64,000 nucleotides of DNA, taken from a virus. Below the pieces are notes generated by a model. It was not told the origin of the DNA and did not search any database. It was given only the letters and a program-made list of their open reading frames with translations. The position numbers and the translations under genes are program-made. The DNA lies in the IMG/VR virus record IMGVR_UViG_3300023174_000104, positions 1 to 64,000 of that record. One strand, 5' to 3'. This document shows positions 16,883 through 26,196 of the stretch, piece by piece; the first letter of the stretch is position 1; the number at the start of each line of letters is the position of its first letter.

Positions 16883-17896
16883 ATGTCAAATCTATTCAAA
16901 AAAGCGGCAGTAATGACTGACCTTCACATTGGTTTAAAATCAAATAGTATAGTTCACAATGAGGACTGTTTAAATTTTGTTAAATGGTTTATAGCAAAGG
17001 CAAAAGATGAAGGATGTGATACTGCAATTATATGTGGTGATTGGCATAATCACCGAGCTAGTATTAATATACATAGTCTACATTACTCTATGCAATGTTT
17101 AGAACTATTAAATGCTAGTTTTAATCAAGTATTCTTTTTAACAGGAAACCATGATCTATACTATAGAGAAAAGCGTGATATTCATAGTGTATTATGGGCA
17201 GGATATCTTCCAAATGTTCATGTTATTAATGACATTTTTACTGAAGGCGATGTGACTATTTGTCCATGGTTAGTAGGTGACGAGGCAAAACAAGTTAAAA
17301 AAATAAAATCCAAATATACATTTGGTCATTTTGAACTTCCCAATTTTTATATGAATGCACAAATATTAATGCCCGATCACGGAGACATTAATATGGACGA
17401 CTTTTCAAATACAGATTTGGTATTCAGTGGTCATTTCCATAAACGTCAAAGCAAAAAGAACGTATGGTATATTGGTAATGCTTTCCCACATAACTATGCT
17501 GACGCAGGTGATGATGCACGTGGTATGATGATACTAGAATGGGGTGAAGAACCTGTATTTCATAGTTGGCCACGTCAACCATTATATCGTGTGTATAAAC
17601 TAAGTGATGTACTAGAAAACCCTCAAGGCTTGCTATTGATTGACAGTCATGTTAGAGTACATCTTGATATTGATATTAGCTATGAAGAAGCAAACTTCAT
17701 ACGTGAAAGTTTTATACCAGAACATAAACTACGTGAGATGGCATTGATTCCCATTAAAGCAGAACAAACAGAGATAGCTGGTTCAGATGGACTTAAGTTT
17801 GAATCAGTTGACCAAATCGTCATTGACCAAATAAATTCTATTGAATCAAATACTTTTGACAAAAAACTATTGTTGGACATTTATAATAACATATGA
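16883..17896 (+). CDS. gp47: Recombination endonuclease subunit (Mre11/SbcD-like)
   Basis: Metallophosphoesterase motifs TDLH, GDWH, GNHD, GHFE, SGHFH; coupled to gp46. Confidence 0.9.
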   Translation: MSNLFKKAAVMTDLHIGLKSNSIVHNEDCLNFVKWFIAKAKDEGCDTAIICGDWHNHRASINIHSLHYSMQCLELLNASFNQVFFLTGNHDLYYREKRDIHSVLWAGYLPNVHVINDIFTEGDVTICPWLVGDEAKQVKKIKSKYTFGHFELPNFYMNAQILMPDHGDINMDDFSNTDLVFSGHFHKRQSKKNVWYIGNAFPHNYADAGDDARGMMILEWGEEPVFHSWPRQPLYRVYKLSDVLENPQGLLLIDSHVRVHLDIDISYEEANFIRESFIPEHKLREMALIPIKAEQTEIAGSDGLKFESVDQIVIDQINSIESNTFDKKLLLDIYNNI

Positions 17897-19968
17897 GCAT
17901 TACCCTAAAGAATATTACCCTTCGCAACTTCCTTTCAATTGGACAAATTACACAAGCTGTTAGTTTTGATAGACAAGACCTAACACTTATTCTAGGTGAG
18001 AACTTAGACTTAGGTGGTGATGGTGCTCGTAATGGTACAGGTAAAACTACCCTGATTCAGGGTCTCTCCTACGCCTTGTTTGGTATACCAATCAATAGCA
18101 TTCGTAAAGATAACTTAGTTAATCGTACAAATGGTAAAGCTATGATGGTTACACTAGAGTTTAACGTTGATGGCATTGATTATAAGATTGAACGTGGTCG
18201 TAAGCCAAACATTCTTAAGTTCTATGTAAACAACGATTTACAGAAAAACACGGACGATGCACAGGGTGAGAACAAAGAAACACAACAAGCTATTGAACGT
18301 GTGATTCATATGAGTGCCGATATGTTCAAACATATCGTTGCATTGAACACATATTCTGAACCATTCTTGGCACTAAAAACTAATGACCAACGTGATATCA
18401 TTGAGCAATTGCTTGGTATTACTTTGTTATCAGAAAAAGCTGAGGTCATTAAGAACATGATCCGTGATAGTAAAGATGGTATACAAGCTGAAGAATATCG
18501 TGTTAAGGGCATTGAAGAAGCTAACAAACGTGTAGCTGAACAGATTGAAGCACTAAAGCGTAGACAGAAATTATGGGTAGCAAAACATAATGAAGATTTA
18601 GATAAACTAGTACATGAGTATGATGATTTGTCCAAAATTGATATTGATCATGAGTTACTAAAACATAAAGAGTTACTAGTTTGGAACAAACAAAAACAAG
18701 ACCAAGATACTTACAATGCATTGGTTGCTCGTTCAACTGCTTGGCAACAAAAGCATGATACAGATGTTTCAATAGCACATAAGGCTTACTCACTTAAAAA
18801 TGAGTATGATATTGAAGCTGAACTTAAAGCTTGGACTGATTTAAAAGAATGGCTACATGATGAATCTGAACAAAAGTCTATTGCTACTAACATTGATACC
18901 CTAACCAAAAGTATCACAAAAGAAAAAAAATTAATTGATAAATTGGTTCGGGAAGTTAAAGAGTTAGAGGATCACAAGTGTTATGCTTGTGGTCAAGACT
19001 TCCATGATGATAAACATTTAGAGGTCACATTAGAAAAAACTACTCTACTTGAGAACGCACGTGCTGAATTAGTTCATTTTGAGACACAATTATCAATCAA
19101 TGAATCATTAGTTAGTGTGTTAGGACCTAAGCCTACACCCTCATACAAGACAGAAGCGGAAGCCATTCGTCATAGTGGTGATGTGTCTAACTTAAAGAAA
19201 GTTTGGGAAGATAAGAAACAAGAATCTAATCCATTTAGTGAACAACTAAATGAATTGACTCCTATAGTTTTAGGTGCTCAACCTGTCACTCATTACGACA
19301 CAGAAGCAGAAGCCATTGAACATCGTAGTAAAGTTAATACATTAATGACACAGATAGCTACAAAAGGTGCTGAGAGTGATCCATATGCTGAACAGGTAGT
19401 AGAGATGGAAAGTAATGCATTACAAGCTATTGATTTTGAAGCTATCAATAAATTAACAAGAACAATGGAACATCAGAAGTTCTTGTTAGATTTGTTAGTT
19501 AGTAAAGATAGTTTTGTTCGTAAAAAGATTATTGACCAGAACTTAAGTTACTTGAATGCACGATTGACACATTACTTAGATAAGATTGGTTTACCCCATC
19601 AGGTTATATTCCAGAACGATTTACAAGTTGAGATTACTGAACTCGGGCGTGAACTTGACTTTGATAACTTAAGTCGTGGTGAACGTAACCGTTTGATTCT
19701 TGGCTTGAGTTTTGCGTTTAGAGATGTATGGGAAAGTTTATATCGCCCAATCAATACATTGTTTATTGATGAGTTGATTGATAGCGGTCTTGACACAATG
19801 GGTGTTGAGAATGCTATTGCGATTCTTAAAGACATGAGCCGACGCAGACAGAAAAGTATTTGGCTTGTAAGTCACCGTGAAGAATTAGCTGGGCGTGTGC
19901 CTAGTGTTCTTAAAGTAATTAAAGAAGGTGGTTTTACCTCATATTCAACTACAACTGATATTATGTAA
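17893..19968 (+). CDS. gp46: Recombination ATPase subunit (Rad50/SbcC-like)
   Basis: Walker A NGTGKT, zinc hook CYACG, signature LSRGE, Walker B FIDE, H-loop VSH. Confidence 0.92.
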   Translation: MSITLKNITLRNFLSIGQITQAVSFDRQDLTLILGENLDLGGDGARNGTGKTTLIQGLSYALFGIPINSIRKDNLVNRTNGKAMMVTLEFNVDGIDYKIERGRKPNILKFYVNNDLQKNTDDAQGENKETQQAIERVIHMSADMFKHIVALNTYSEPFLALKTNDQRDIIEQLLGITLLSEKAEVIKNMIRDSKDGIQAEEYRVKGIEEANKRVAEQIEALKRRQKLWVAKHNEDLDKLVHEYDDLSKIDIDHELLKHKELLVWNKQKQDQDTYNALVARSTAWQQKHDTDVSIAHKAYSLKNEYDIEAELKAWTDLKEWLHDESEQKSIATNIDTLTKSITKEKKLIDKLVREVKELEDHKCYACGQDFHDDKHLEVTLEKTTLLENARAELVHFETQLSINESLVSVLGPKPTPSYKTEAEAIRHSGDVSNLKKVWEDKKQESNPFSEQLNELTPIVLGAQPVTHYDTEAEAIEHRSKVNTLMTQIATKGAESDPYAEQVVEMESNALQAIDFEAINKLTRTMEHQKFLLDLLVSKDSFVRKKIIDQNLSYLNARLTHYLDKIGLPHQVIFQNDLQVEITELGRELDFDNLSRGERNRLILGLSFAFRDVWESLYRPINTLFIDELIDSGLDTMGVENAIAILKDMSRRRQKSIWLVSHREELAGRVPSVLKVIKEGGFTSYSTTTDIM

Positions 19969-20016: not shown

Positions 20017-20667
20017 ATGTTTATCAATAACGAAGCTTATAATAGATATTATGAAATTATTGCGAAGGCAGAATCAATATGTCCCCGCAATATAAAAAAG
20101 ACAGAAGCTATGAAAATCAGGGGTTATATTGAAGATCATCATATCATACCTAAATGTTTAGGCGGTGCTGATGTTCTTGCTAATAAAGTTTGGTTGACAG
20201 CCGAAGAGCATTTTATGTGTCACAAATTATTAACTGAAATGACTGTAGATAATTCTAATGGTAAAATGTGGAGTGCATTATGGCGAATGATGAATAAGCA
20301 AAGCAAAAATCAAGATCGTGATTACCTCATTGATGCAAAGGAATATGCTATAGCTAGAGAACAAAACGCAAAAAATCATAGCATTAGAATGAGGGGTGAG
20401 TTAAATCCATTTCATAACAAAAAGCATACTTCTACAACAAAAGAAACAATGTCGGCTAAGAAAAAAGGAAAATCATATGAAGAAATTTTTGGAGCAGATA
20501 AAGCAAAAGAAATGAAAGAACGCAGAAGCACAGAGGGGCTCGGTAAGTTAAAAGGGCCGCAAAAGAAAATAGAGTGTCAACATTGTGGGGCCGTAGGTGG
20601 TTTTGGTATAATGAAGCGATGGCACGGTGACAAATGTAAATTTATCGGCACCAATCATACAGCATAA
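20017..20667 (+). CDS. Free-standing HNH homing endonuclease (family B, MobE-like) with NUMOD3-like and C-terminal Zn motif
   Basis: EDHHIIPKCLGG...LTAEEHFMCHKLL, NPFHNKKHT, CQHC...RWHGDKC. TAAATA and AAGGAG upstream. Confidence 0.85.
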   Translation: MFINNEAYNRYYEIIAKAESICPRNIKKTEAMKIRGYIEDHHIIPKCLGGADVLANKVWLTAEEHFMCHKLLTEMTVDNSNGKMWSALWRMMNKQSKNQDRDYLIDAKEYAIAREQNAKNHSIRMRGELNPFHNKKHTSTTKETMSAKKKGKSYEEIFGADKAKEMKERRSTEGLGKLKGPQKKIECQHCGAVGGFGIMKRWHGDKCKFIGTNHTA

Positions 20668-20675
20668 GTATTAAC

Positions 20676-21230
20676 ATGACATCACCACAGAAAGCTAAAG
20701 GATCAGGATTTGAGAGAGAAGTTGCAAAGTTTCTTTCTGACCTATATGGCGAAAGCTTTATACGAGCACCTGGTTCCGGAGCTTACATTGGTGGTAAAAA
20801 TCAGCATAGAACAGCAGTATTACATGAAGGACAAGTACGTTCTTTCAAAGGTGATATTGTACCCGGTCAGAGTTTCAGTAAGATGAACATTGAATGTAAG
20901 TTTTATGCAGATTTTCCTTTTCACTTACTACTTTCAGGTGACTGTAAAGTAATAAATACATGGATTGAACAATTAATGGATGTTGCCGAAGCCGGCGATG
21001 TAAATTTATTGTTTATGAAGTTTAATAGAAAAGGTCGTTATGTTGCCGTGCAATGCGGCTCAACATGGATAACAGACAATTTTGTCTATTATTCGTCAAG
21101 CAAGTTTGGCGATTGGCTAATCGTTGAATTTGATGACTTTTTTCAACACAACAGTACATTATTAAAAACCTATTCGGCAACACCAGACACCACGTCAAAT
21201 CAAACTGTTATTAATATCCCAACAACATAA
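20676..21230 (+). CDS. Holliday junction resolvase-like PD-(D/E)XK nuclease (Hjc-like)
   Basis: KAKGSGFEREVA...RAPGSGA...GDIV...IECK motif order. Confidence 0.75.
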   Translation: MTSPQKAKGSGFEREVAKFLSDLYGESFIRAPGSGAYIGGKNQHRTAVLHEGQVRSFKGDIVPGQSFSKMNIECKFYADFPFHLLLSGDCKVINTWIEQLMDVAEAGDVNLLFMKFNRKGRYVAVQCGSTWITDNFVYYSSSKFGDWLIVEFDDFFQHNSTLLKTYSATPDTTSNQTVINIPTT

Positions 21231-21239
21231 TAAAATAAA

Positions 21240-21606
21240 AATTCGTTGTCTGAGTTTGTCAGACCTCCTTGAAGATGCGTGTAAGAACGCTGATGGATCT
21301 GGAGTAAGCATAGTTAGTGATAACTATGGAATACCGAGAGGGCAATCGACAAAGCGAACCCTCAACAAGCTCACCCCTACTTTATCTTTGCGGGGTGAGA
21401 AGTGCGTTGCTGAAGAATCAATTGAAAGATCATTGATAGCTTCACTACAGTCCCATAACTTTACAGAGCAACCGGTAGCGTTTAGTAGCATCAAATAGCT
21501 AATTAGACGGGGAAAAGATGACAAAGGATGACGGGCATGGCAAATACCCTTAACCATTGGTAGTGCTGAATAGCACTACCATGGCTTTCTAAGCGGCAAT
21601 TGAATT
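21240..21606 (+). ncRNA. Putative large structured non-coding RNA (~365 nt)
   Basis: Locally GC-richer intergenic block with at least 8 hairpins, e.g. catagtta/taactatg 21309-21328, ctcacccc/ggggtgag 21370-21399, tggtagtgct/agcactacca near 21558-21581. The 5' and 3' ends can pair. G-U pairs favour the plus strand. Confidence 0.65.
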
Positions 21607-21649
21607 AATTAAATATAAACTCTTTATAAACAATAGATTACCGTAAAAA

Positions 21650-21693
21650 CTAAGAACGAACGAAGTGAGTTCTTAGATGAACGAAGTTCATCT
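21650..21693. other. Twin inverted repeats, one with a C-GAA-G triloop, after an AT-rich tract
   Basis: ctaagaac/gttcttag (21650-21676) and agatgaac-GAA-gttcatct (21675-21693). Confidence 0.7.
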
Positions 21694-21738
21694 TTACAAT
21701 AGAAATAAGAATATATAAACCTAATTTTCAATAAATGA

Positions 21739-22236
21739 CTAATTACGGGCTCTCTTACTTAAACTAATACGTGCTTTTGTTATATCACTAGTGGGCCCTT
21801 TTTTTCTGCCTAATAACTTTTCACGTATTTTTGTTTTTGTTTCTTCACTCAATTGCTTTCTAGTTGATCCTTTTTGTCTTTCAGATTGTCTTTGATTTGA
21901 TTCCGGTGAATGTTTAATTACTCCTTTTAAACCCTTATTCCAAGCATGTTGACCTTTTCTGGCGCCGCCGTCACCCTCTTCTGGTTTTAAATTTGCCCAT
22001 GTAACATCTTCAACTACATTCCATAAATTACTATAATGTTGGCCCCAGTATTTTATTTCTGAGTTGTCATTACATTCTTTAAGAATTTCTGTAGTTACGT
22101 CATAGCCGTGTTTTTTTATATGGCGCATCCATATAGTACCTGAACCTTTATATTCATGAGGGTTGGGATTTATTGTTTTTCCAAGATATTTAAGACCAGT
22201 AATGTTGTGGGTCTTTTTATACAAATAAATAGTCAT
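21739..22236 (-). CDS. Free-standing GIY-YIG (Seg-like) homing endonuclease with NUMOD3-like repeats
   Basis: IYLYKKTHNITGLKYLGKT...YKGSG...WANLKPEEGDGG, then AWNKG, HSPES and LSEETK repeats. Start ATG 22236 with AAGGAG. Confidence 0.85.
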   Translation of the reverse strand: MTIYLYKKTHNITGLKYLGKTINPNPHEYKGSGTIWMRHIKKHGYDVTTEILKECNDNSEIKYWGQHYSNLWNVVEDVTWANLKPEEGDGGARKGQHAWNKGLKGVIKHSPESNQRQSERQKGSTRKQLSEETKTKIREKLLGRKKGPTSDITKARISLSKRARN

Positions 22237-22303
22237 GCTGATGCTCCTTAATAGCGTTAGAGTAGTTGGGATGTACGAAGTCCGCGAACTACACAAATAT
22301 TTA
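22226..22303. promoter_or_regulatory. Conserved endonuclease leader element, copy 2, flanked by convergent TAAATA motifs
   Basis: Minus strand: TAAATA-N5-GTAGTTCGCGGACTTCGTACATCCCAACTACTCTAACGCTATTAAGGAGCATCAGC-ATG. Plus-strand TAAATA at 22226-22231. Confidence 0.85.
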
Positions 22304-22541: not shown

Positions 22542-23363
22542 TTAACCGAAAAAATCGGTTACATTAAGTGTAAGAGTCTGTTCATATTGATGTTGGCAGT
22601 GGATACACTTTACCATTAATGGTTTAAGTTGAGCACTTTCACGTAATTTAATTGCTGTATTTTTTAAATTATCAAATGTTTTTTTATCCGTATTTCTTAA
22701 AAAATCATTGATATGTTCTTTTTCAGTAACAATTTCGTTAGGTGTAGAAATTGAATCAATGGTTTCTGTAATTAACTTCATACTTAGTTCATTAAGATTT
22801 TTCATTGTTTGTCCGGAAATACGTAGTCGTTCTTCACCGTCAGTAATATTTTCAATATTTCTGATTGTTTTTTCAATTTCAAATTGAACTAAGTTAATTT
22901 CATTTACCTTTTTATATGATATTGGATTGAATTTAATTATTAAGTCATTAATTTTAATCACATCATCATATTCTGGTTTTAAGTTACTAAGTAAACCTAC
23001 CAAGTTAATATTATATGATGCATCTTTTTCACATGAGGGGCATACAGATTCTACGTCTAACATATTTCCACTAGAAGCTACACGTATAGATATTAGTATT
23101 GCATCTAAATCTATTGCGGGTATAGCCCATGGATCTTTAATATTAGGAACACAGCTTTTAATAATTTCAGTTATTGCAATACCATTGAATAGTGCGTCCG
23201 GGGTTTTGCTTGTAATTTCATCTATAGCAGTCATGGGATATACCGGTAATTCTTTATTATCAGGTAGATCAATGGTGCCCTCCGGATAATACTTACCTTC
23301 GCTAGGTAATTTTACATAGATTGCAGGTCTACGAAAATATTGTTTTAGTGGGTTAGTGTTCAT
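22542..23363 (-). CDS. Baseplate hub assembly chaperone, gp26-like
   Basis: YVKLPSEGKYY...YPMTAIDE...DLDAILISIRVAS, CPSC and CIHC Zn pairs, ends DFFG. Start ATG 23363 with GGAGA SD. Confidence 0.75.
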   Translation of the reverse strand: MNTNPLKQYFRRPAIYVKLPSEGKYYPEGTIDLPDNKELPVYPMTAIDEITSKTPDALFNGIAITEIIKSCVPNIKDPWAIPAIDLDAILISIRVASSGNMLDVESVCPSCEKDASYNINLVGLLSNLKPEYDDVIKINDLIIKFNPISYKKVNEINLVQFEIEKTIRNIENITDGEERLRISGQTMKNLNELSMKLITETIDSISTPNEIVTEKEHINDFLRNTDKKTFDNLKNTAIKLRESAQLKPLMVKCIHCQHQYEQTLTLNVTDFFG

Positions 23364-23393
23364 TTTTTCTCCAAATATGTGTTTTTTGTAATC

Positions 23394-23414
23394 ATAAATA
23401 CTATTAATATTTAG
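23394..23414. promoter_or_regulatory. Opposed late promoters serving the divergent gp26-like and tape measure genes
   Basis: ATAAATA on plus (23394-23400) and CTAAATA on minus (23408-23414). The T4 late consensus is TATAAATA. Confidence 0.6.
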
Positions 23415-23427
23415 TGGGTAAAACAGT

Positions 23428-26196
23428 ATGGATAATAATATTGAAATTGATGAATTAATTAAAGCTCTTAGAGAAGCCACTGAGGTAGAACGGGAAAAAA
23501 CTGAAGTTACTAAAAGGTCTGCAGAACAGCAAGAAAAAGACCTACAAAACGCAATTGAACAATCTGCTGGATATACTAGAATTAACGGTAAACTAGTTAA
23601 ACAAGAAGAACAGCGAATTCAACTAGAAGCCAAACTTAATAAAGAATTAGAACAACAATTTGGAGCAGGAAAATTACGTGCTGATAAACAAGAAGCATTA
23701 TTTAATCAGCAATTAAAGCAACTAAACTACATGATTGATAGCAATGGTAAACTTGCTAAAACTAGTGTAGAACTTAATTCTTATCAACAAAAATTAATTA
23801 CTAGTGTAAAGAAACTAGCTGAAGAGGACGAAAGACGGTTAAAAAGTAAAGATAATATAATCCCTGAGTTAAAAAAGGGTTTAGCAGAGATAGGCAAAGC
23901 ATCATTTGGTGTTGCTACTAATCTAGCAAAAGGTGAAACCAGTTTTACTACGTTATTTCCATTAATGGATTCATTGGCTAGTGCGACTAGTGCTGTGGGT
24001 AAAGGTCTTTTAGGCATGATACCAGTTGTTGGTGGATTTGCCGCAGCTTTTTTTGAAGCTAGTACAAAAATAGCATTGGAAGGAAGTAAATTTCTTATAG
24101 AAATGCTAGAGAAAAGTGTTAAAGACTTTCAAGAAATGGGAAATGCGGGAGCTTTAATTAGTGGAGGAATGACCGCTCTTAATGATCAGATTTTAAAAGC
24201 CGGCATGACAACTGACGGGTTCAAAAAAGTAATAAAAGAAAGTGCTACTACATTGGCAGCTTGGAAGGGAACAGTGGGAGAAGGTGCTAGAGTATTTTCT
24301 GAGGCTATAGGAGAGTTATCATTAAAAGGCGCAGGTGATGACTTACGAAAATTAGGTTTCACTGCGGATCAAATGGGTGAATCGGCAGCGGCATTTTTAG
24401 AGCAAGAAATACGTTTGGGTCGTGGTAGAAACATGTCTCAAAAACAATTGGTAGAAGGTACTATCCGATATGCCAAAGAATTAGATTTACTAAGTAAAGT
24501 TACTGGGTTGAGCAGAGAGGATGCTCAAAAGCAACGTGATGAATTATTATCTGATAGTAGATATAGAGCCTCAATTGAGGGGATGAATAAAGAAAATCAA
24601 AACGCCCTTAACGGTTTGATTATGAGATTTAAAGATCCAAACTTAAAACGTGGTTTAATGGATTTGGCATCCGGAGCTATTACTACAAAAGACGCCGGTA
24701 TGTTAATCACTTCATTTGGTGACACAGCCTCTGATGCCATTCAATCTCTTAAAGATGCTTCACCCGAAGAGTTACCTAAAGTTCTTGATAAGGTAATGCT
24801 TGATTTTCAAAATTCTGCGAAAACCAATAAAGAGATGTTTGGTGAAGTATACAAATATTTAGAACCGGGTACAATGATTAATGCCGCAACAATTTTTGAT
24901 ATTGCATCCGGTAAATATACAACATCTATGGTACAGGCAAAAGAATCACAAGATGCACAGATAAAAAATACAGATAAATTAACTGAACAAACAATTGATG
25001 CTCAGAAAAATATGGAACTATTAAGTAGGAACATGAGAGAGTTGGCAAATGAACAGTTGCCAAAAGCATCAGAAGCAGTTGCATATTTTACTAAAAAATT
25101 ATATGAAGCAGTTTCAACAATTTTTGGTGGTCCTGTAGGAGAAGGCAAAACTATTGCGACTAAAGAAGAAGCAGATAAAAATGTTGAAAATGCACAGCGA
25201 AAATTAGAAAATGCTCAAAAAAATAATGATAAAGTAGCTGAAACAAAAGCACGGCAAGAACTTGAAGCCGCAAAAAATGCTAGAGATTTAGCAGAAATTG
25301 CTAGAAGAAATAGACAACAACCCGGCGCCGGTAAACCAGTAACACCAAACGGAACTACTAATCCCGCACCTACTCCTACTCCTACTCCTACTCCTACTCC
25401 TGTACCGGGCACTACACCTGCAAAACCTGCGCCTACTCCTGTACCAGGTACTAAACCTTCAACACCCACTCCTACTCCTGCACAGGGCACTAATCCTAAT
25501 AAAAAAACTGCAGACCAATTAGTTACATTTGGTTCAGGATCAGGTGATAAAGCTCACTTTGATATGTTAGACCCAACTGTACGTGATTCATTTATGAAAA
25601 TGATTGAGGAATATGGAAAATCTGTAAAAATTACCTCATCATTCCGAAGTTTTGAAGAACAAAAAGCATTATGGGATAAGGCCAGATCAGGCCCAACTCC
25701 TGATGTACGTATGCAAGACAATGGCATGCCGGTAGCAAGACCGGGCACAAGTAAGCATGAACAAAAAATGGCTATAGATTTATCAAAGTCTGATGCATTA
25801 GACTTTTATAACACAACTAAACGTAATGGGTCTGATCTGTTGAACAAGTATGGATTTAACTACGATCCAATAAAAGATGCTGTACATTTTGAAAAGGCTA
25901 GATTTGGTGGTATGTTTGATGGACCAGAATCTGGATACCCGGTTATGCTTCACGGTGAAGAAGCTGTAGTACCTAAACCTGATTTCACTGAACTTAAACA
26001 AACGATGAGTGAAGTATCTAAAAGTAGTTTAGCAACTGCAATGCCAAATCCTGTAACACAGAATAATGTTACCGATCCTGTACAGTCATTAAAAGCTCTA
26101 CATAATATTATGTCAGACAAATTTGATCAAATGATAAGTGTAATGGAAAAAAGCACCGATATACAATATAGAATATTAAACAATTCAATGGTTTAA
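23428..26196 (+). CDS. Tape measure protein with Pro/Thr linker and C-terminal M15/VanY-like peptidoglycan peptidase
   Basis: Long helical Ala/Leu/Gln-rich body, PTPTPT linker, then ITSSFRSFEEQ...PGTSKHEQKMAIDL...DAVHFE (SxHxxxxAxD...H Zn-peptidase motif). Confidence 0.75.
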   Translation: MDNNIEIDELIKALREATEVEREKTEVTKRSAEQQEKDLQNAIEQSAGYTRINGKLVKQEEQRIQLEAKLNKELEQQFGAGKLRADKQEALFNQQLKQLNYMIDSNGKLAKTSVELNSYQQKLITSVKKLAEEDERRLKSKDNIIPELKKGLAEIGKASFGVATNLAKGETSFTTLFPLMDSLASATSAVGKGLLGMIPVVGGFAAAFFEASTKIALEGSKFLIEMLEKSVKDFQEMGNAGALISGGMTALNDQILKAGMTTDGFKKVIKESATTLAAWKGTVGEGARVFSEAIGELSLKGAGDDLRKLGFTADQMGESAAAFLEQEIRLGRGRNMSQKQLVEGTIRYAKELDLLSKVTGLSREDAQKQRDELLSDSRYRASIEGMNKENQNALNGLIMRFKDPNLKRGLMDLASGAITTKDAGMLITSFGDTASDAIQSLKDASPEELPKVLDKVMLDFQNSAKTNKEMFGEVYKYLEPGTMINAATIFDIASGKYTTSMVQAKESQDAQIKNTDKLTEQTIDAQKNMELLSRNMRELANEQLPKASEAVAYFTKKLYEAVSTIFGGPVGEGKTIATKEEADKNVENAQRKLENAQKNNDKVAETKARQELEAAKNARDLAEIARRNRQQPGAGKPVTPNGTTNPAPTPTPTPTPTPVPGTTPAKPAPTPVPGTKPSTPTPTPAQGTNPNKKTADQLVTFGSGSGDKAHFDMLDPTVRDSFMKMIEEYGKSVKITSSFRSFEEQKALWDKARSGPTPDVRMQDNGMPVARPGTSKHEQKMAIDLSKSDALDFYNTTKRNGSDLLNKYGFNYDPIKDAVHFEKARFGGMFDGPESGYPVMLHGEEAVVPKPDFTELKQTMSEVSKSSLATAMPNPVTQNNVTDPVQSLKALHNIMSDKFDQMISVMEKSTDIQYRILNNSMV

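Follow-up and report, generated by a model that had tools for sequence, protein, structure and literature searches.

Locus and distribution

The window (the whole 64,000-nt stretch of DNA analyzed) carried a conserved structured RNA of ~360 nt at positions 21241–21600 of the + strand. It was preceded by a PDDEXK_15 (Hjc/resolvase-like) nuclease gene, whose reading frame was closed by its own stop codon at 21228–21230, and followed by a terminator-like tail and then by a gene on the opposite strand. The features of the locus were as follows:

20676–21230, + strand: PDDEXK_15 (Hjc/resolvase-like) nuclease gene, 184 aa (Pfam PF24608, E = 4e-26), the probable source of the RNA's transcript
21186–21196, + strand: mini-hairpin P0 (GAC-ACCAC-GUC), within the last codons of the nuclease
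21197–21240, + strand: A-rich linker from P0 to the core, variable in length and sequence, containing the nuclease stop codon
21241–21600, + strand: conserved core of the structured RNA (conservation profile, covariation, shuffles)
21601–21639, + strand: AT-rich spacer, variable in sequence
21640–21691, + strand: conserved tail (conservation 0.8–0.9; stem variants preserve pairing)
21640–21648, + strand: ACCGUAAA motif of the tail
21650–21676, + strand: tail hairpin T1, loop GAACGAAGUGA
21677–21691, + strand: tail hairpin T2, GAA loop

The RNA was carried by all ~200 related IMG/VR loci fetched, where it lay between the gp46/Rad50–nuclease genes and a convergent baseplate gene, adjoining recombination genes. 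In one relative (L133), the RNA was kept, but radical-SAM/SPASM and SegE genes stood in place of the nuclease. The carriers are a clade of uncultured T4-like jumbo phages of fresh and brackish water. Cultured phages gave no match (blastn against 50,697 phage records), and no cellular homologue was found when 185,579 prokaryotic species genomes were scanned with a 19-base motif (3 hits, all chance). A prior description of the RNA was not found in the literature, although it may well be among the 8495 unnamed candidates of a 2023 IMG/VR structured-RNA survey (PMC10690425). Related genomes encoded a permuted tmRNA, located elsewhere than the RNA, and 25–46 tRNAs; in G003, the RNA mapped to 91 kb, the tRNA cluster to 193–203 kb. 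The RNA family was abundant in lake, estuary, and drinking-water metagenomes.

A preliminary description of this DNA, made from the letters only, had placed a non-coding, GC-richer element downstream of the nuclease, and both its placement and its character held. The GC content was 0.41–0.435 in the element vs. 0.28–0.36 in the flanks. The sole ORFs in the element (80 aa on the + and 77 aa on the − strand) were not conserved, and several relatives had none of the six frames open for more than 50–55 aa, so a protein gene was rejected.

Comparative support for the structure

The structure model comprised 100 base pairs in 18 helices. Across 58 distinct sequences, 95.5% of the cells were paired and 69 of the 100 pairs had compensatory changes (changes on both sides). 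None of 500 shuffles matched these pairing and compensation values, and in slid controls 34–44% of the cells (~40%) paired. G-U cells outnumbered A-C cells over the whole model (595 vs. 148), which identifies the + strand as the RNA strand. Among 127 distinct sequences, 83 positions were at least 97% conserved, the near-invariant positions being concentrated in junctions, and in distant relatives conservation was 76% for the RNA vs. 71% for the neighbouring coding DNA. Single-sequence folding was compared with shuffled controls as well (z = −3.1 on the + and −4.3 on the − strand); these scores favor a structured RNA but are only suggestive of it, and the comparative evidence is decisive.

The RNA truly belongs to a family of ~360-nt non-coding RNAs that had not been catalogued before. 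Its body is compact, with fifteen nested helices, including a four-way junction, and three pseudoknots. The earlier reading of the element as a phage-encoded structured RNA outside the known classes is borne out by the covariation, by the G-U vs. A-C count, which places it on the + strand, and by the lack of an Rfam match (see below).

Helices and pseudoknots

The helices and the strands that join them were located as follows:

21248–21264, + strand: P1 hairpin, 6 bp, sequence variable, with both-side changes in 6/6 pairs
21265–21304, + strand: P2, CUCC (21265–21268) with GGAG (21301–21304), enclosing P2a
21277–21290, + strand: P2a hairpin inside P2, covarying
21309–21328, + strand: P3 hairpin, 8 bp, with both-side changes in every pair
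21332–21477, + strand: central four-way junction domain, supported by covariation
21332–21336 with 21473–21477, + strand: P4, closing P5/P5a, P6/P6a, and P7
21338–21363, + strand: P5/P5a
21365–21403, + strand: P6/P6a
21380–21389, + strand: P6a loop, its first two bases in pseudoknot PK3 and the next eight in PK1
21406–21411 with 21467–21472, + strand: P7, enclosing P7a/b and the invariant strand ACUACAG...ACUUUACAG
21412–21443, + strand: P7a/b
21449–21454, + strand: junction strand AGUCCC, with 21449–21450 in PK3 and 21451–21454 in PK2
21480–21508, + strand: P8 hairpin, 10 bp, with both-side changes in 9/10 pairs
21510–21521, + strand: 3′ strand GGGAAAAGAUGA, with 21510–21513 in PK2 and 21514–21521 in PK1
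21554–21584, + strand: P10 hairpin, 12 bp and one bulge, loop UGAAUA, near-invariant in sequence

All stems listed in the preliminary description were recovered and kept in the relatives: gtctga/tcagac is P1, gcgt/acgc P2a, catagtta/taactatg P3, gaggg/ccctc P5, ctcacccc/ggggtgag P6a, gttgct/agcaac around tgaag/cttca P7/P7a, cgtttagt...aattagacg P8, and tggtagtgc/gcactacca P10. Compensatory changes were found in all of these. The one other listed stem, ctcc/ggag (P2), is present and kept but shows no covariation either way; it was invariant in 58 of 58 distinct rows, so that its pairing is neither proven nor disproven. A proposed pairing of the ends (aattc-gttgtc with ggcaat-t-gaatt) had to be given up: the strands were paired in 35–81% of the 127 sequences, with no compensatory change, and the helix clashes with P1.

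The central domain was also captured by a covariance model (R1), built on this 152-nt core only, which gave a single hit in the window, at 151 bits. Within the domain, C21460 was seen only with G21477 (12/12), and U21460 may form a base triple with U21332-A21477.

The pseudoknot suspected at first reading between ttatcttt (21382–21389) and aaagatga (21514–21521) is PK1, which covaried at 21382/21521 (U-A 94, C-G 29) and 21384/21519 (A-U 74, G-C 48). PK2 covaried at 21451/21513 (U-A 84, C-G 21, A-U 8) and 21452/21512 (C-G 118, U-A 8), and the counts for PK3, between the P6a loop and 21449–21450, were C-G 84, U-A 22, and U-G 19. Together, the three pseudoknots are predicted from these patterns to join the P6a loop, the junction strand, and the 3′ strand into a closed three-way junction made of loop and junction strands only.

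Outside the central domain, P8 had 139 G-U and 4 A-C cells. The rare changes in P10 were compensatory or G-U, its upper stem being without A-C cells. In both P2 and P10, the sequence was conserved well above what pairing needs. The 5′ strand of P2 belongs to an invariant CUCCU-GA stretch that resembles the 16S anti-Shine-Dalgarno sequence; this stretch and UGGAG were invariant in 127 sequences, while the stems beside them vary.

Twin segments around P10

Two single-stranded segments with the same letters flank P10, and conservation falls directly after the second:

21533–21543, + strand: segment A (GGGCAUGGCAA), mostly in the P9 loop, having the letters of segment B plus a 2-nt insert
21533–21535 with 21547–21549, + strand: small hairpin P9
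21591–21600, + strand: segment B (AAGCGGCAAU), the final conserved block of the core, repeating the letters of segment A

The segments changed together, letter for letter, at 21535/21593 (G/G 68, U/U 28, C/C 11, A/A 2) and 21539/21595 (G/G 102, A/A 10), and whole segments were switched between members, GGUAAU occurring with GGUAAU and GAUAAU with GAUAAU. At seven core positions, the letters of A and B were identical in 100–117 of the 127 sequences. In 108–117 of the 127, the flanks had G at segment A and A at segment B, and they differed only by G-to-A transitions. Twins that are alike everywhere, with flanks that differ by G-to-A only, are the pattern expected if both pair with one complementary strand.

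That strand was searched for at several scales. No consistent complement was present within the RNA, G-U pairs allowed, and no exact complement in the loci with 2.5-kb flanks. A G-U-tolerant partner site ~200 nt upstream, in the nuclease gene, was found in 35/127 members and rejected, as it did not covary and was broken by synonymous changes. Nothing convincing was found in a 96.7-kb contig. Four large related genomes each had a few near-perfect and 40–54 wobble-tolerant sites, with no common orthologous context where the segment letters differ, and no site fell within the tRNA or tmRNA genes of related genomes. Since the searches of the RNA, its flanks, and the phage genomes yielded no complementary strand, the template DNA strand of segment B would be the simplest candidate.

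Flanking hairpins and transcription

The RNA body is set between two AU-rich linkers and bracketed by small hairpins, P0 upstream and T1/T2 downstream. P0 was present in 106/116 members, 18–75 nt upstream of P1, with the linker between P0 and the core varying over the same range; its stem variants GGC/GCC, GAG/CUC, and GUC/GAC preserve the pairing. P0 stood after the stop codon or without an ORF in 7 members, one of them being L133, which lacks the nuclease gene. P0 is probably the 5′ flanking hairpin of the element. We infer that the RNA body is excised from the mRNA or located at its end, with the linker at 21197–21240 as a processing region.

The spacer on the 3′ side had a mean GC content of 0.23 vs. 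0.36–0.41 for the genomes, but was not richer in AT than the other intergenic DNA of the window (GC 0.28 at 21600–21799). Read on the minus strand, where a U-run follows it, T1 also resembles a terminator of the convergent baseplate operon. Motifs of the mini-hairpin type (GCGAAGC, ACGAAGU, etc.) occurred at least once in 116/122 tails and at least twice in 90/122, the first of them 28–112 nt past segment B in the relatives; given a background of 0.06–0.13 per 200 nt, the tails are enriched ~15-fold or more. Mini-hairpin motifs of this kind have been reported at phage priming sites (PMC13037366), and those of the tail may also be the preferred terminator loops of this phage group. The P0 hairpin overlapping the last nuclease codons, the same-letter segments around P10, and the tail of AT-rich spacer and mini-hairpins are new here.

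RNA-library contigs from four studies covered 20664–21563, and three bridged the nuclease gene and the RNA, although DNA carry-over is possible in contigs, which give neither strand nor ends. Their depth was roughly equal over gene and element, while the Rad50 and baseplate genes were less covered. Contigs of two studies stopped at 21559 and 21563, just before a strain-variable loop, and these stops were not taken as evidence of the 3′ end of the RNA. Directly before the RNA, neither a sigma-70-like site nor a T4-late-type TATAAATA promoter was found. The RNA family appears to be expressed, and the RNA is probably the 3′ part of a transcript that also carries the resolvase-like nuclease gene. 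This agrees with the co-transcription suggested in the preliminary description in that contigs run from gene to element, evidence that is weak because it comes from contigs.

Comparison with known RNA classes

Only a few RNA classes of bacteria or phages are known that are both large and highly structured, and new biochemistry came to light with each one that has been solved: the ribosome, RNase P, introns, tmRNA, and, more recently, OLE, GOLLD, and ROOL. A search with Rfam 15 (4227 models, including GOLLD, ROOL, OLE, raiA, HEARO, and Polynucleobacter-1) gave no gathering-score match in the whole window. The sub-threshold matches within the element were to CRISPR-DR25 (17 nt) and to an lncRNA (30 nt), both at E ~1, and in 13 further members nothing matched inside the element at E ≤ 10. 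Core motifs of RNase P, tmRNA, and group I/II introns had not been seen by eye either, and none of these models matched at E ≤ 10. A tmRNA, with its tRNA-like ends and tag reading frame, was ruled out by ARAGORN, which found no tRNA or tmRNA in the window.

Group I introns and RNase P RNA resemble this RNA in size, in having long-range pseudoknots and junction strands that are conserved, and in covariation suggestive of base triples; this phage group also has numerous tRNA genes requiring processing. However, no intron or RNase P model matched, no gene is interrupted, and the helix order fits neither. A group I intron was ruled out because the nuclease ORF ends before the element and the next gene is antisense, RF00028 gave no match at E ≤ 10 (14 members), and the helices found do not follow the order P3-P4-P5-P6-P7-P3′-P8-P7′. 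RNase P RNA (P4 pseudoknot, CR-I/CR-V) was rejected because none of the RNase P models gave a hit at E ≤ 10, and P4 of the element encloses just 146 nt and three arms. A template RNA for a reverse transcriptase (retron, DRT2, or telomerase type) was also rejected, there being no RVT_1 (PF00078) match in five related genomes, three of them complete; as to the DRT2 type, the repeat unit from A to B is 50–66 nt long and follows no multiple-of-three rule, and the unit in the window has stops in all frames.

GOLLD (RF01998) and ROOL (RF03087) are likewise large, ornate, pseudoknotted non-coding RNAs of phages and prophages rich in tRNA genes, found by comparative genomics. They differ in that no sequence or structure match was obtained (cmscan, E ≤ 10, 14 members), in length (roughly 580–800 nt vs. 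~360 nt), and in hosts and habitat, and the RNA is not beside the tRNA genes in G003. Both reportedly form multimers (bioRxiv 10.1101/2024.12.08.627333).

The omega and HEARO RNAs of IscB and TnpB share a structured, pseudoknotted form of a few hundred nucleotides and a place beside, and transcription with, a nuclease gene. In contrast, the nuclease here has an unrelated fold (PD-(D/E)XK), there are no transposon ends and no Rfam HEARO match, and the RNA persists without the nuclease (L133), as the nuclease does without the RNA. The phi29 pRNA (120–174 nt), which oligomerises through complementary loops, is also a phage-encoded structured RNA that is part of a DNA-handling machine and not a regulator, but the twin segments described above are alike, not complementary, and no Rfam match was found.

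Proposed function

Judging from its anatomy, the RNA may grip a complementary strand of nucleic acid, which could be its own DNA template. We tentatively propose that it acts by strand capture, forming an R-loop, a reading drawn from sequence patterns that we hold to be possible rather than probable. Segments A, in its loop, and B would be placed next to each other at the base of the invariant P10. Segment A would keep the newly made transcript attached to its template, the template strand of segment B, and so seed a lasting RNA–DNA hybrid. The hybrid could then spread into the AT-rich spacer and expose the tail mini-hairpins on the displaced strand. DNA replication, or recombination-dependent replication, would start at this site, much as with ColE1 RNA II.

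ColE1 RNA II, like the R-loop origins of T4 and T7, provides a long folded transcript that enters an AT-rich region beside replication and recombination genes. A stretch far upstream in it reportedly binds template DNA near the origin (Masukata and Tomizawa 1990). It can do so because the upstream stretch has the same sense as the downstream one, and segments A and B share this arrangement: the upstream RNA segment could pair with the template DNA of the downstream stretch, a likeness of sequence pattern only. There is no homology, and the RNA body here is more conserved and more knotted.

That the RNA organises a start site of replication (or recombination-dependent replication) in jumbo phages, through the R-loop of segment A and primase-type mini-hairpins, is a further step that we consider rather unlikely. 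The surroundings look origin-like, with the AT-rich spacer, the tail mini-hairpins, and the recombination genes, and the role of replication primer, offered as a possibility in the preliminary description, gains some indirect support from the A/B twin pattern and from the motifs and spacer of the tail. In five large contigs, the global GC-skew minimum was situated 4–40 kb upstream of the RNA (4, 4, and 6.5 kb in G000, G003, and G004; ~39–40 kb in G002 and G005), in a profile that mostly tracks gene direction and is ambiguous as to an origin. Against a primer, the 83 invariant positions and three pseudoknots seem to far exceed what a primer needs. Against an origin, the T4 origins oriF and oriG and the T7 origins need only a promoter and an unwinding element, and the T4 origins work without an ornate RNA. 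The partner of the segments may also be other than template DNA: it could be host-encoded or short, or a protein could read both segments.

If strand capture is right, the RNA would reveal how DNA replication begins in giant T4-like phages. An origin role, if true, would make it the first ornate, pseudoknotted origin RNA in any virus, a ColE1-like mechanism reinvented in a 350-kb phage. The compact size (~360 nt), unusually rich covariation, abundance, apparent expression, and clear-cut architecture, with its closed three-way pseudoknot junction and twin same-letter strands, make the family well suited to cryo-EM and to testing directly for an R-loop.

Alternative explanations

Should strand capture be wrong, the RNA would still be a candidate for a new ribonucleoprotein or ribozyme, and it is conceivable, if somewhat doubtful, that it represents a new class of free-standing ribonucleoprotein scaffold or ribozyme, the kind of role presumed for GOLLD, ROOL, and OLE; a ribozyme was also among the possibilities raised in the preliminary description. 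The junctions and pseudoknots would form a binding or catalytic pocket, and the twin segments, instead of pairing, would either dock one phage factor at two places or make tertiary contacts. This would suit the near-invariant positions, most of which are in junctions, the closed pseudoknotted fold with its possible triple, the conservation of P2 and P10 well past pairing needs, and the negative searches for a nucleic-acid partner. However, the segments vary freely (four bases at one position, whole switches) and yet stay alike, which is typical of base pairing and hard to reconcile with a protein site, and neither a candidate protein partner nor an evident cleavage or ligation site was found.

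It is improbable that the RNA is a translation decoy, in which the invariant CCUCCUU (21264–21270), a copy of the 16S anti-Shine-Dalgarno end held by the invariant GGAG, would bind bS21, S1, or Shine-Dalgarno sequences and bias translation to phage messages. Ribosomal protein bS21 is common in aquatic phages generally, which counts against this reading, as does its gene being ~150 kb from the RNA in G003. Still, bS21 was encoded in 4/5 related genomes, including all three complete ones, and together with the permuted tmRNA and the 25–46 tRNAs it indicates that this phage group invests in translation; the invariance of CUCCU-GA and UGGAG between variable stems fits as well. One report links bS21 to another large RNA, OLE (PMC12054373). 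A 6-nt match is nonetheless expected by chance in ~1/12 RNAs of 360 nt, no other likeness to 16S rRNA was detected with Rfam models, and the twin segments and tail are left unexplained.

The element could also be a cis-acting 3′ untranslated element that shields the recombination-gene mRNA from 3′ exonucleases or insulates the convergent units, with no role of its own. Its place as the last part of a transcription unit, opposite a convergent gene, the similar RNA contig depth over gene and element, and the resemblance of T1 and T2 to terminators agree with this, but we regard it as unlikely: a pair of terminator hairpins would suffice, a 360-nt body with three pseudoknots, 83 invariant positions, and conservation above that of the protected gene is disproportionate, and the element is retained in L133, where the upstream gene has been replaced.

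Much as the omega RNAs serve IscB and TnpB, the RNA might be a guide or partner of the adjacent PD-(D/E)XK nuclease, being directly downstream on the same strand in ~200 loci, probably co-transcribed, and equipped with variable single-stranded segments that could serve as guides. This role, one of those raised in the preliminary description, was weakened by the comparisons and is very unlikely, as the two do not obligatorily co-occur. L133 has the RNA without the nuclease, and PA5oct, Phosso, and SCTP-2 have a nuclease 39–43% identical to it, with the RNA found neither beside that gene (nhmmer on the nuclease regions) nor, as a match to the core domain, in the whole genomes (covariance model R1; best E = 0.5). 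Hundreds of phages have PDDEXK_15 proteins that are ordinary resolvase-like enzymes, and the synteny may reflect only common descent.

Finally, the view that there is no RNA, but a DNA-level site (recombination, packaging, or protein-bound palindromes), an unrecognised protein gene, or a chance structure, is close to refuted: although P10 is a near-invariant 12-bp palindrome with flanking direct repeats, like a recombinase site, and the minus strand folds well too, no reading frame is conserved, G-U cells are tolerated on the + strand where A-C cells are rare (overall, in P8, and in upper P10), and the long-range pseudoknots covary.

The structured RNA and its locus

The element at window positions 21241–21600 (+) defines a new class of phage RNA, large and pseudoknotted. 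That it is a genuine structured RNA and founds a new family we regard as practically certain. The source of the window is an IMG/VR contig of 96.7 kb, with an estimated completeness of 28%, that belongs to a T4-like jumbo phage. The order Rad50, nuclease, element and convergent baseplate gene was constant throughout the relatives.

Features of the locus (window coordinates)
17893–19968, +, gp46/Rad50 gene
20017–20667, +, NUMOD3 homing-endonuclease-like ORF
20676–21230, +, PDDEXK_15 resolvase-like nuclease gene
Between 21230 and 21739, gene-free stretch with the RNA element, from the nuclease gene to the 185-aa ORF
21739–22296, −, 185-aa ORF, no Pfam match
22542–23480, −, T4-type baseplate gene

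The ORFs at 20017–20667 (+) and 21739–22296 (−) flank the block of nuclease and RNA and look like sporadic homing-endonuclease insertions, because most relatives are without them. One RNA-library contig omits 19949–20664 and so represents the arrangement that lacks the first (NUMOD3) insertion. At a related locus (L133:5786–7161), radical-SAM and SPASM ORFs and a SegE-type GIY-YIG endonuclease replace the nuclease gene, while the RNA is retained.

Conservation among relatives

The nuclease protein was used as bait to fetch 80 related viral contigs, and in virtually every one the DNA directly behind the nuclease gene matched the window's stretch at 70–98% identity. A 19-base pattern was then taken from the strand with the highest conservation, and a motif scan with it yielded at least 120 further contigs; among all matches listed (at least 120), each contig held one copy, full-length or cut by the contig end. 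The preliminary description of a gene-free, GC-richer stretch was borne out: its GC content was higher than that of its flanks, and no reading frame in it was conserved across the relatives. Among distant relatives, the element was 76% conserved vs 71% for the adjacent coding DNA. Conservation set in at approximately 21241 and fell steeply after 21600, with a second conserved block at 21640–21695. Folding energy, proposed earlier as a check, was on each strand somewhat better than that of shuffled sequences (z = −3.1 on +, −4.3 on −), although such scores by themselves prove little about structure.

Secondary structure and pseudoknots

In the alignment of 60 related elements (A1), invariant single-stranded blocks alternated with stems, both sides of which changed together. 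RNAalifold predicted 69 pairs, 48 with compensatory changes. Three pseudoknots (PK1–PK3) and a few extra helices were added from mutual information on 127 distinct sequences, and the final model of 100 pairs in 18 helices was counted on A1.

Parts of the fold
5′ part, P1, P2 with P2a, P3
Central part, four-way junction in which P4 closes P5, P6 and P7
3′ part, P8, P9, P10
21380–21389, P6a loop, pairs with the junction strand and the 3′ strand
21449–21454, junction strand AGUCCC, pairs with the P6a loop and the 3′ strand
21510–21521, 3′ strand GGGAAAAGAUGA, pairs with the P6a loop and the junction strand

Paired cells made up 95.5% in the model vs 82.9% in shuffles and 34–44% with partners slid 1–3 columns, and 69 pairs were changed on both sides (46.5 in shuffles); 0/500 shuffles reached any of five measures. 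PK1, PK2 and PK3 join the three loop strands, with covariation in all three pairings, and together close a three-way junction built of loop strands only. All stems noted by eye in the preliminary description reappear in the model, as does its pseudoknot, now supported by covariation as PK1; the pairing of the element's two ends was the only proposed pairing that failed. U21460 was changed to C only where G replaces A21477 in the P4 pair U21332-A21477 (12/12), a hint of a base triple that switches from U.A-U to C.G-C. G-U pairs outnumbered A-C pairs (595 vs 148 overall, 139 vs 4 in P8), and therefore the selected molecule is RNA from the + strand.

Flanking hairpins

The structure proposed at 21240–21606 stood, and the element reaches past these limits on both sides. 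Upstream, the mini-hairpin P0 (GAC-ACCAC-GUC, 21186–21196) was found 18–75 nt before P1 in 106/116 members, with compensatory stem variants (GGC/GCC, GAG/CUC, GUC/GAC). In most phages it falls within the final codons of the nuclease gene, but in seven it follows the stop codon, and it is also present in L133; P0 therefore belongs to the RNA element and not to the protein. Downstream of the core come an AT-rich spacer (GC 0.23), the conserved ACCGUAAA motif, and the hairpins T1 and T2. The core thus appears to sit between two AU-rich linkers bracketed by hairpins, which is the usual layout of RNAs trimmed from longer transcripts. The loops of T1 and T2 bear GCGAAGC- or ACGAAGU-type mini-hairpin motifs, with at least one in 116/122 tails and at least two in 90/122 (expected 0.06–0.13 per 200 nt). 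According to a recent review, motifs of this kind are common where phage replication is initiated and primed (PMC13037366).

Searches for known families and homologues

Rfam 15 gave no match anywhere in the window at gathering scores, and at E ≤ 10 neither the window's element nor any of 13 further members matched; together with the covariation and the G-U excess, this supports the first reading as a structured RNA of unknown class. No tRNA or tmRNA was detected by ARAGORN. A group I intron was excluded because the element interrupts no gene, and by helix order. When one genome from each of 185,579 prokaryotic species was scanned with the 19-base motif, three chance matches and no homologue came up. 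No prior description of the element was found in the literature searched.

The nearest cultured phages were Pseudomonas PA5oct, Sinorhizobium Phosso and Salicola SCTP-2 (Rad50 and nuclease 39–43% identical to the window's). The RNA was absent beside their nuclease genes, and R1, a covariance model of the 152-nt core domain, found the domain nowhere in their genomes. In PA5oct, a 1.5-kb stretch adjoining the nuclease gene (MK797984.1, 75666–77180) is annotated with only four tiny ORFs (117–153 nt); it has no similarity to the element RNA (nhmmer, R1) and might conceal another non-coding element.

Expression

Metagenomic DNA runs of drinking-water, lake, estuary, wastewater and marine origin contained the element sequence, and six metatranscriptome runs contained about one third of its words. 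RNA-library contigs from four studies covered 20664–21563 at word depths of 13–27 or more, vs up to about 10 for Rad50 and 0–2.5 for the baseplate gene. Three of the contigs bridged the nuclease gene and the RNA, which fits the co-transcription suggested earlier and does no more than fit it; strand, ends and DNA carry-over are beyond judgement because the RNA data are contigs. No promoter-like site was found directly in front of the RNA. In one subclade of divergent members (L058, L081, L089, L109, L117, L140), the conserved intergenic motif CACAGAACCCU precedes the RNA's 5′ conserved block by about 3–15 nt; this motif, which the contig of the window lacks, may act as a promoter or in processing.

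Twin segments and possible function

Two segments flank the invariant hairpin P10, one on either side.

21533–21543, segment A, mostly in the P9 loop
21591–21600, segment B, last conserved block of the core

Once a 2-nt insert in A is set aside, their letters always agree: 21535/21593 were G/G in 68 sequences, U/U in 28, C/C in 11 and A/A in 2, and 21539/21595 were G/G in 102 and A/A in 10. Divergent clades switch both together (GGUAAU with GGUAAU, GAUAAU with GAUAAU). At the two flanking bases, segment A has G where segment B has A in 108–117/127 sequences, a pure transition. Covariation of this same-letter kind, in which transitions are the only differences, is the signature of two strands pairing with one common partner, because U or T can pair with A as well as with G. 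No such partner with conserved context was found in the RNA, its 2.5-kb flanks, the 96.7-kb contig, or four large related genomes and their tRNA/tmRNA genes.

One partner, the template DNA strand of segment B, would require no extra sequence: it necessarily complements B, and it complements A if wobble pairs and a 2-nt bulge are allowed. In the plasmid ColE1, an upstream stretch of the primer RNA II reportedly binds template DNA near the origin, giving a persistent hybrid (work of Masukata and Tomizawa in 1990); segment A on the template of B would be a similar arrangement. Such a mechanism would create an R-loop adjoining the AT-rich stretch and the priming-type mini-hairpins, beside phage recombination genes. 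Strand capture is put forward tentatively as the best explanation, and its origin/R-loop version is more doubtful still. In five large contigs, the cumulative GC-skew minimum lay upstream of the RNA by 4 kb (G000 and G003), 6.5 kb (G004) or about 39–40 kb (G002 and G005), and the skew tracks gene direction. The skew forms a clean V, with the minimum at 87 kb and the maximum at 214 kb in the 348.7-kb relative G003, and with the minimum at 17 kb in the window's contig (1–96688). This last minimum is where the gp46 gene block begins, and the RNA follows 4 kb downstream. The coding strands are rich in G.

About equally likely as strand capture is the main rival, a ribonucleoprotein or ribozyme with a partner not visible here. 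A role in translation is a minor alternative: CCUCCUU (21264–21270) copies the anti-Shine-Dalgarno sequence and is held by an invariant GGAG, and related genomes encode ribosomal protein bS21, permuted tmRNA and 25–46 tRNAs. The RNA as a guide of the adjacent nuclease is weakened from both sides, since L133 has the RNA with the nuclease replaced, and PA5oct, Phosso and SCTP-2 have the nuclease without the RNA. A reverse-transcription template with repeat jumping, which would also yield twin segments, was rejected because no reverse transcriptase gene was found in five related genomes and the unit between the segments has no constraint on length or frame.

Translation genes of related genomes

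Genes for bS21 (PF01165, 48–58 bits) occurred in 4/5 related genomes, including all three complete ones.

G001:63744–63896 and 471943–472095, bS21, two copies in one genome
G002:168208–168360, bS21
G003:241570–241722, bS21
G004:256387–256536, bS21
G003:38319–38707 and 193529–202935, example tRNA/tmRNA coordinates

The tRNA genes of complete relatives form a single cluster (25 in G003, 46 in G002). A permuted, two-piece tmRNA was present in all four of G002, G003, G004 and G005, with tags such as ANDSQFALAA, a style that presumably points to a proteobacterial, perhaps betaproteobacterial, host.
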